Shown in pieces: positions 24,331-25,352 of a DNA stretch of 64,000 nucleotides. Within the stretch, counting starts at the first letter, position 1. Each line of letters begins with the position of its first letter. The notes beneath the pieces were generated by a model. The model saw only the letters and a program-made list of their open reading frames with translations. It searched no databases and had not been told where the DNA came from. Position numbers and translations under genes: made by a program. The DNA lies in assembly GCA_964016885.1 (NCBI GenBank), contig OZ024744.1, forward strand, positions 85,746,001 to 85,810,000, read 5' to 3'. This DNA comes from Eledone cirrhosa (taxonomy: Eukaryota).

Positions 24331-25352
24331 TTGGTTAGATTATCAATATTAGTATTATTGGGGCACCCACTGATGAGCCCACTTGAATATATATCTATTG
24401 ATGGTATACAAGCTCCTACATACATTGGTATAATTTCACCCAAATTGTAGGAATCCTATAAGGAAACGAGACGTCCGTCTGGGAAGAGATATATTCGATA
24501 TGTCTCATATGAAATAATACAGCCAATTTTCCACGCAATACTTTTAGCTAGCACCCCGAACGCATAATTAGGAATATAATCACTTATTTCCTAATGTTTG
24601 TTGAGTGAGTTGGAATTTGGCCGGAGTATCGCTAAAAAGCTTTCTCCGATATTGTATTTATTTACTCTTGGTGCAACAGATTTGAAATTCCCGGTATAAG
24701 GTTAGGCTTTCTTTGTTGTTTTTTTTTATATGAATATTTATTGTTCCTTATATCTCACTCTGTTATTTTGCCCGAGAAAATATCTGTGTCATCAAATGTT
24801 GTACACACATAGATATTTTTTCAATTTCAAATTTAGTTCTAGCACGTGGCCTGAATTCCTTTTAGACTTCATTGTCATGCGCATGTATTGTTTTTTTTGG
24901 CGGTAATTTACTTCCTCATTTTTGAATCAGTTTGAGCATTTCTTTAGAATTGTTGGACTAGCAACCTGACAGATACCTCAGGCACTGATGATGATTATCG
25001 CTAAATACTGATGTTGGTTAGATTATCAGTATTAGTATTATTGGGGCACCCACTGATAAATTATAGGAGCCCGCTTGAATATATATCTATTGATGGTATA
25101 CAAGCTCCTACATAAATTGGTATAATTTCACCCAAATTGTAGGAATCCTATAATGAAACGAGACGTCCGTCTGGGAAGAGATATATTCGATATGTCTCAT
25201 ATGAAATAATACAGCCAATTTTCCACGCAATACTTTTAGTTAGCACCCCGAACGCATAATTAGGAATATAATCACTTATTTCCTAATGTTTGTTGAGTGA
25301 GTTGGAATTTGGCCGGAGTATCGCTAAAAAGCTTTCTCCGATATTGTATTTA
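24331..25352 (+). mobile_element. Retrozyme-like element: two ~330-bp direct repeats each with a hammerhead, flanked by (TA)n
   Basis: 24331-24660 matches 25014-25352; CCCA-CTGAT(G/A)A...GAAACG-agacgtc-CGTC/-TGGG at 24366-24483 and 25049-25175. Confidence 0.75.

Follow-up and report, generated by a model that had tools for sequence, protein, structure and literature searches.

The systems closest to the element described here are the non-LTR retrozymes of metazoans, the Penelope-like elements (PLEs) whose terminal repeats carry hammerhead ribozymes, and the LTR retrozymes of plants. Dimeric PLE hammerheads have reportedly been treated by Lunse et al. 2017. In the accessible parts of the published accounts, helix II is 0-8 bp long with simple loops (PMC4209133, PMC13725137, PMC3088659), and double-hammerhead cleavage is expected to go with a palindromic loop III (PMC4209133). 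The described features of Neptune, Naiad and Hydra PLEs include 5' truncation, partial tandems and (TA)n targets (PMC8557442), and for a Poseidon PLE it has been shown that reverse transcription initiates internally (PMC11167929). What the hammerhead does in PLEs is called unclear in PMC8557442. For the best-studied PLE, the available portion of PMC11167929 reports that no RNA-seq reads terminating at the cut site could be found, and eight of nine predicted Xenopus retrozymes are given as showing no cleavage in vitro (bioRxiv 10.64898/2026.07.22.740005).

Here we analyse a 64,000-nt stretch of the Eledone cirrhosa genome (hereafter the window, with its first letter as position 1) that contains one member of a family with the testable features of metazoan non-LTR retrozymes, from which it differs by a three-way-junction stem II. 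Like those retrozymes as described (PMC7229834; bioRxiv 10.64898/2026.07.22.740005), the family consists of non-coding, low-GC (34%), self-paired tandem monomers with a type I hammerhead each, and likewise it is found together with PLEs. The monomer, at ~700 nt (sisters ~743 to ~1,030 nt), exceeds the 150-450 nt given in PMC7229834 but lies within the 51-972 nt range of bioRxiv 10.64898/2026.07.22.740005. Stem II is a three-way junction of 95 nt rather than a 4-bp hairpin and, unlike the metazoan retrozymes as far as the available descriptions go, the copies are dispersed, 5'-truncated and (TA)n-targeted. With PLE terminal-repeat hammerheads the family shares a stem I of 4-5 bp without a clear loop 1, a long stem II and a palindromic loop III, whereas the PLE helix II is described as 6-8 bp with a simple loop (PMC4209133) and ours has 9 bp plus two hairpins, in an element with no ORF. 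Hydra and Neptune PLEs, as described in PMC8557442, are alike in their (TA)n targets, 5' truncation and partial tandems, but the retrozyme has no reverse transcriptase (RT) or GIY-YIG ORF and its two-armed inverted copies are rare. Plant LTR retrozymes also present a ~700-nt cut-to-cut unit between two ribozymes (PMC4918200), but they are described with a type III hammerhead and true LTRs where we find type I, tandem overlaps and variable 5' ends, and their 4-bp target duplication is not visible here. Among the titles and abstract openings searched, with subscription papers and supplements outside the scope, we found no account of a branched stem II occurring naturally in the hammerhead of a retroelement, nor of a cut-site chimera of the kind described below.

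In the window, the insertion occupies 24331..25352 on the + strand between a (CT)n(TA)n microsatellite (24236..24330), the upstream insertion target as read from the sequence, and a (TA)n tract (25353..25374), the downstream target, in agreement with the flanks claimed by a first-pass annotation of this DNA. The two repeat copies span 24331-24664 and ~25011-25352, with a spacing of 692 nt; their alignment of 343 columns shows 95.6% identity. The two ~330-bp direct repeats of that annotation are therefore real, and the separate middle that it placed between them is not, being the remainder of a tandem monomer. The window unit is not repeat-middle-repeat: it comprises about 1.5 copies, truncated on the 5' side, of a tandem monomer of ~700 nt that lacks an ORF, and it stops at the fixed 3' end of the family. 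Both GUC triplets end exactly at 24479 and 25171, the positions after which cleavage had been proposed, so that these remain the predicted sites. The 692-nt cut-to-cut monomer that they delimit (24480..25171) is non-coding, as had been stated, with no ORF across six frames, and its + strand is strongly self-paired relative to shuffles (-175 kcal/mol, z -5.17; minus strand -147, z -2.69).

Both hammerheads of the window copy are damaged, and their lesions include those that the first-pass annotation had listed. The first, of type I (24366..24483, + strand), has intact core boxes and has lost exactly the 9-nt 5' strand of stem II; it carries a second lesion, T>G, at the final base of stem II, folds no better than shuffles (29 of 200 as good) with a stem II pair probability of 0, and is predicted to be inactive. 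The second (25049..25175, + strand, predicted cut after 25171) comprises stem I (25049-52 with 25172-75), a core box (25053-59) in which the reported CTGATAA corresponds to G8>A at 25058, a G12-A15 box (25155-58) and a self-complementary loop III (25159-69). Its branched stem II (25060..25154), recognised from folding and covariation, is a 9-bp stem (25060-25068 with 25146-25154) closing a three-way junction, with a 77-nt insert that folds into hairpin a (25074-25104) and hairpin b (25106-25144, inner stem 3 bp). No shuffle out of 200 folds equally well (z = -2.68), which bears out the stem II closing a ~77-nt insert with two hairpins. The first of these had been quoted as GCTTG..CAAGC; the hairpin exists, but its fifth pair is private to the window copy, the family having A at 25073. 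The window copy thus holds no two complete hammerhead motifs and, from these predicted folds, is probably a catalytically dead member. The G8>A change is seen at three loci, namely at window 25058, in L021 and in two of the three monomers of L006, a recurrence that may be a sampling effect, since the search that yielded them was based on similarity to the window copy. Downstream of the second hammerhead, a 3' segment (25176..25352, + strand) runs from the cut site to the fixed 3' end, where reverse transcription would start internally. It includes a conserved hairpin at 25255-25320, a candidate helper-recognition element; as judged by eye, the loop of this hairpin could in several subfamilies base-pair with an invariant stretch further downstream.

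The surroundings of this copy are rich in other elements. A 5'-truncated Neptune-type PLE 3' end, which has 91% column identity to L094, lies at 24002-24235 and carries a minimal hammerhead of its own at 24040-24078; the retrozyme sits in the microsatellite immediately behind this PLE end. A remnant of a two-armed (inverted) Hydra-type PLE end follows at 25375-25611; its minus arm has 81% column identity to the Hydra family in L162, and its plus arm was recognised by eye. An Rfam match to MIR837 at 28031-28186 proved false, since the region is an inverted pair of a Neptune-type PLE end with a U3-A8 hammerhead variant (by eye). Positions 1-14050 and 14900-18500 hold a head-to-tail array of a ~6.04-kb LINE, with 97.9% identity between units plus a diverged copy, whose open frames of ~710 aa and ~1,020 aa contain endonuclease/RT motifs. 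We take this array to be L1/Tx1-like. From their motifs, 26613-27107, 36462-38048, 42858-43184 and 50726-52914 are presumably fragments, derived from a mariner-like transposase and from other non-LTR retrotransposons.

The family is abundant in the genome (3.0 Gb). A first look with the repeat gave 1,817 candidates and one with the middle gave 1,448, and the best 40 of each, which were scored, are 93-100% identical (98-100% for the repeat's top 40). Exact patterns matched 639 young-branch hammerheads whose core is intact at a spacing of 80-110 nt, and 2,516 sister-branch hammerheads with a variant stem I. They also matched 3' ends, of which 909 are young and 805 older. The reversed-pattern controls gave 0 throughout. 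An intact core and stem II are therefore present elsewhere in the genome, and the 639 matches are spread across many contigs. At the family level, C3-A9, G12-A15 and an NUH triplet occur in type I order, and intact tandem hammerheads are present, for example in L026 and L013. We counted a hammerhead as intact if it retains both core boxes, the triplet and no fewer than eight of the nine stem II pairs; this holds for 102 of 119 near-complete young ones, in a sample enriched for intact copies, many loci having been fetched using the intact-core pattern. The suggestion that the consensus is intact while the window copies are damaged therefore holds. The family forms a ladder of subfamilies, SF1 (that of the window), SF1b, SF2, SF3 and SF4, whose masters differ by up to ~20%. 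There are also sister branches, which are 67-76% identical and have monomers measuring ~743, ~990, ~1,009 and ~1,030 nt. The sister subfamilies at L337, L368 and L389, with monomers of ~990-1,030 nt, carry the same branched hammerhead, and their greater length apparently comes from an internal duplication of the middle. Monomer GC is 0.34, and the circular fold of L026 has a z of -6.8 against 40 shuffles. A suspected short-3' subfamily was rejected, being three single deletions.

Rfam gave no hammerhead match at E<=1 in window 20-30 kb and nothing at gathering score across four intact loci, likely because of the long insert. A short-stem-II version carrying the loop III of the young family has 0 matches in the genome. 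A pattern with 40-70 nt spacing has 52 matches against 122 in its control; deletion copies or sister subfamilies account for some of the 52.

Comparison of sequences shows that the branched stem II is real. In a first test along the ladder (45 sequences, from which two old copies were omitted through trimming, together with three truncated and two young ones), 4 of 28 pairs had changed on both sides; the cells and the covariation score exceeded all 500 shuffles, but the number of pairs did not (304 of 500 shuffles). In a second test across all branches, two-sided changes were found at 8 of 27 pairs and in all four helices (23 of 500 shuffles; slid controls 0-2), with 23 hand-chosen sequences and with the structure taken from the window copy, a bias in its favour. 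Between the SF1 and SF2 masters, eight of ten differences are double changes at paired positions (three pairs kept, one broken), and the remaining two fall among 39 unpaired nucleotides; SF4 adds three one-sided pair breaks. In sister branches the sequence of hairpin a is rewritten and the hairpin retained, and stem I covaries between branches. Divergence is 0.20 in the insert versus 0.21 in the middle. The insert sequence is thus no better conserved than the middle, which indicates that shape has been kept and not sequence.

Other parts of the ribozyme present a more varied picture. Loop III differs among subfamilies and is self-complementary, by eye, in each one seen. In the young branch it could form a 12-bp intermolecular duplex (-16.1 kcal/mol), while stem III is weak in cis, and this self-complementarity makes cleavage as a dimer likely according to the folding model. 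An upstream GGG and the CCC of hairpin b are nearly invariant, and a pseudoknot between the hairpin b loop and the GGG is possible; no compensatory change or covariation between them was detected among the compared subfamilies, and the CCC is partly engaged by a covarying inner stem. An alternative pairing during transcription, between the 5' strands of stem II and of hairpin b, is predicted in the young subfamily but weakened in older ones, and was set aside as a conserved switch.

To describe how copies insert, we used contig C1, where the first 100 3' ends listed gave 86 loci, and 84 after two with an internal anchor were dropped. These insertions are 30 to 2,494 nt long (16 exceed one monomer) and are flanked by (TA)n on the 3' side in 80 cases and on the 5' side in 65; one cut site is crossed in 58 and two in 10. 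Of 48 arrays, drawn from 60 loci that had been chosen by hammerhead or middle regardless of their 3' end, 43 terminate at the fixed 3' end, which lies ~180 nt beyond the cut site in the downstream direction. The 5' ends are variable, and other copies start and continue anywhere in the monomer; target-site duplications are not readable inside (TA)n. Copies on both strands, i.e., two-armed inverted ones, were seen at one of 60 loci. This pattern, in which copies share one 3' end, are truncated on the 5' side, form partial tandems and target (TA)n, is the same as in PLE insertions. The L312 copy, preceded by (TA)n, begins exactly at the predicted cut site, and two more copies begin within 3 nt of it. 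A cluster of 5' ends, belonging to 9 of the 84 copies, lies immediately past the cut site, at a distance of 165-177 nt from the 3' end; there are smaller clusters elsewhere, and coinciding TA-like microhomology could explain this one. Across 33 multimer loci of 154, monomers diverge by 2.7% within a locus and 4.55 +/- 0.27% between loci, and rare alleles are shared at 1.48% within a locus versus 0.31 +/- 0.09% between loci (0 of 300 resamplings). This fits one template read repeatedly, and equally a multimer template or later duplication.

One locus preserves a discrete monomer. At L071:1311-1983, which is the same as L405:6985-7656 (C1, ~337.332 Mb), a single 672-nt cut-to-cut monomer lies within a ~750-nt, 5'-truncated Neptune-type 3' UTR between (TA)17 and (TA)9. 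It is placed exactly at the predicted cut site of the host's own variant (U3-A8 type) hammerhead, begins with the base after the retrozyme cut site, ends in GUC and is 97% identical to L026, with deletions of 14 and 10 nt in its two hairpins. The junctions show no microhomology, and comparison with the commonest empty site reveals neither a missing nor a duplicated base; no contig bridging them was present among the matches listed. The arrangement occurs at one of 111 upstream junctions examined. It would most simply have arisen by ligation of ribozyme-cut RNA ends or by two template jumps of reverse transcriptase between cut RNAs, either of which needs cleavage at the predicted sites. We therefore regard this single locus, on its sequence, as a probable fossil of such cutting in vivo, with joining by one of these two routes. 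The hammerhead-like motif of this Neptune family, seen at L098, L103, L107, L164 and others, has U3-A8 and often C for A13; the junction of L071 nonetheless falls at its predicted cut site. Together with the branched stem II conserved through compensatory changes, the discrete cut-to-cut monomer at L071 supports the retrozyme-like reading first proposed for the window copy.

We are confident that the family is a tandem repeat of ~700 nt, high in copy number and encoding no protein, with a branched type I hammerhead on its + strand; its intact members are predicted to cut themselves and circularise, and it is likely copied into (TA)n by a PLE. In intact members, the transcript would be cleaved at the GUC site, probably as a dimer given the palindromic loop III, an event of which one genomic fossil is known, and the ends of the monomer would then be ligated into circles. 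A PLE enzyme (reverse transcriptase/GIY-YIG endonuclease) would nick (TA)n and prime internally ~180 nt downstream of the cut site, and reverse transcription would run round the circle or along an uncleaved multimer, leaving 0.05-3.5 monomers. The least certain step concerns the branch, which may be a folding scaffold replacing the usual loop I/loop II contact or a docking site for a protein. An alternative scenario, in which the same element is mobilised from uncleaved linear read-through of genomic multimers, with rare cutting and circles playing no part in transposition, appears unlikely. In its favour, the cut site is traversed in 58 of 84 copies, and in vitro insertion of the Anolis PLE is described as unaffected by hammerhead mutants, with unprocessed RNA as the dominant substrate (PMC11167929). 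Against this stand the retention of the core, the stems and the palindromic loop III across subfamilies up to ~33% apart, the capture of a cut-to-cut monomer at L071, and the accumulation of related invertebrate retrozymes as circles, as reported in PMC7229834.

Copying by a PLE raises the question of the helper, which in our assessment is most likely of the Hydra clade, towards which we lean, and otherwise of Neptune. The genome is rich in PLEs, with 10,597 GIY-YIG candidates, of which 150 were scored. Its PLE families number at least six of Neptune type, with one that is Poseidon-like and two that are Hydra-like. No homology in the hammerhead region was found with the sampled families (Neptune A-F, one Poseidon-like, two Hydra-like). 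Over the 50 nt around the 3' end, all four sister-branch ends match the young Hydra PLE (Hydra-1; 0-7 of 5,000 dinucleotide shuffles), their last ~45 nt resembling the Hydra-clade end, and none matches Neptune A or B; the two window-branch ends tested against the Hydra PLE are not significant (587 and 2,047 of 5,000 shuffles). The young Hydra family has several intact 713-aa ORFs with RWK-like, DKT and CxCX5C motifs. These have no match in Pfam, and the clade assignment therefore rests on the motifs described in PMC8557442. At L162:1800-2266 a Hydra-type arm stands head to head with a young retrozyme at a seamless junction with 4-5 nt of microhomology, resembling the Hydra family's own two-armed insertions. 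The sole chimera with a PLE 3' end (L071) involves a Neptune end, not a Hydra one.

The retrozyme itself contains no ORF with RT and GIY-YIG in the loci examined, and it might be seen as a detached terminal repeat or internal-deletion derivative of an unsampled autonomous PLE, a relic and not an independent replicon. We consider this improbable. The PLE-like insertion pattern favours it, as do the pLTR origin proposed for Xenopus retrozymes in the available part of bioRxiv 10.64898/2026.07.22.740005 and the fact that the PLE diversity examined is a part of the whole (150 of 10,597 candidates), but in all loci analysed for layout the ORF-less monomer is arranged head to tail, the monomer stays intact through successive subfamilies, and two pairs of 3' ends lying 2.9 and 4.1 kb apart are interrupted by unrelated LINE-type ORFs with no PLE ORF. 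A local tandem duplication or DNA satellite with a chance hammerhead-like motif, for which the silence of Rfam at the window coordinates might be cited, is next to impossible given dispersed copies with one fixed end, compensatory changes, a + strand folding bias and controls of 0.

Since Rfam misses the family, motif censuses likely undercount ribozymes of this kind. The family offers a natural hammerhead with a 77-nt branched insert, together with a subfamily ladder of built-in compensatory variants, and chimeras of the L071 type provide a cheap, countable read-out of in-vivo cleavage and ligation or template jumping. More speculatively, and with distinctly less assurance, we suggest that RNAs of unrelated elements, once cut by their hammerheads, may be linked through those cut sites in germ cells before being retrotransposed. 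L071 would then be a fossil of such an event, in which a retrozyme monomer was ligated at the cut site within a Neptune PLE RNA, and the branched stem II may be a new natural hammerhead architecture, its side arms docking on stem I or on the helper protein. If this is true, L071 would show that PLE hammerheads cut in vivo, and recombination at the RNA level would be a route for the origin of retrozymes and for their switching between helpers.
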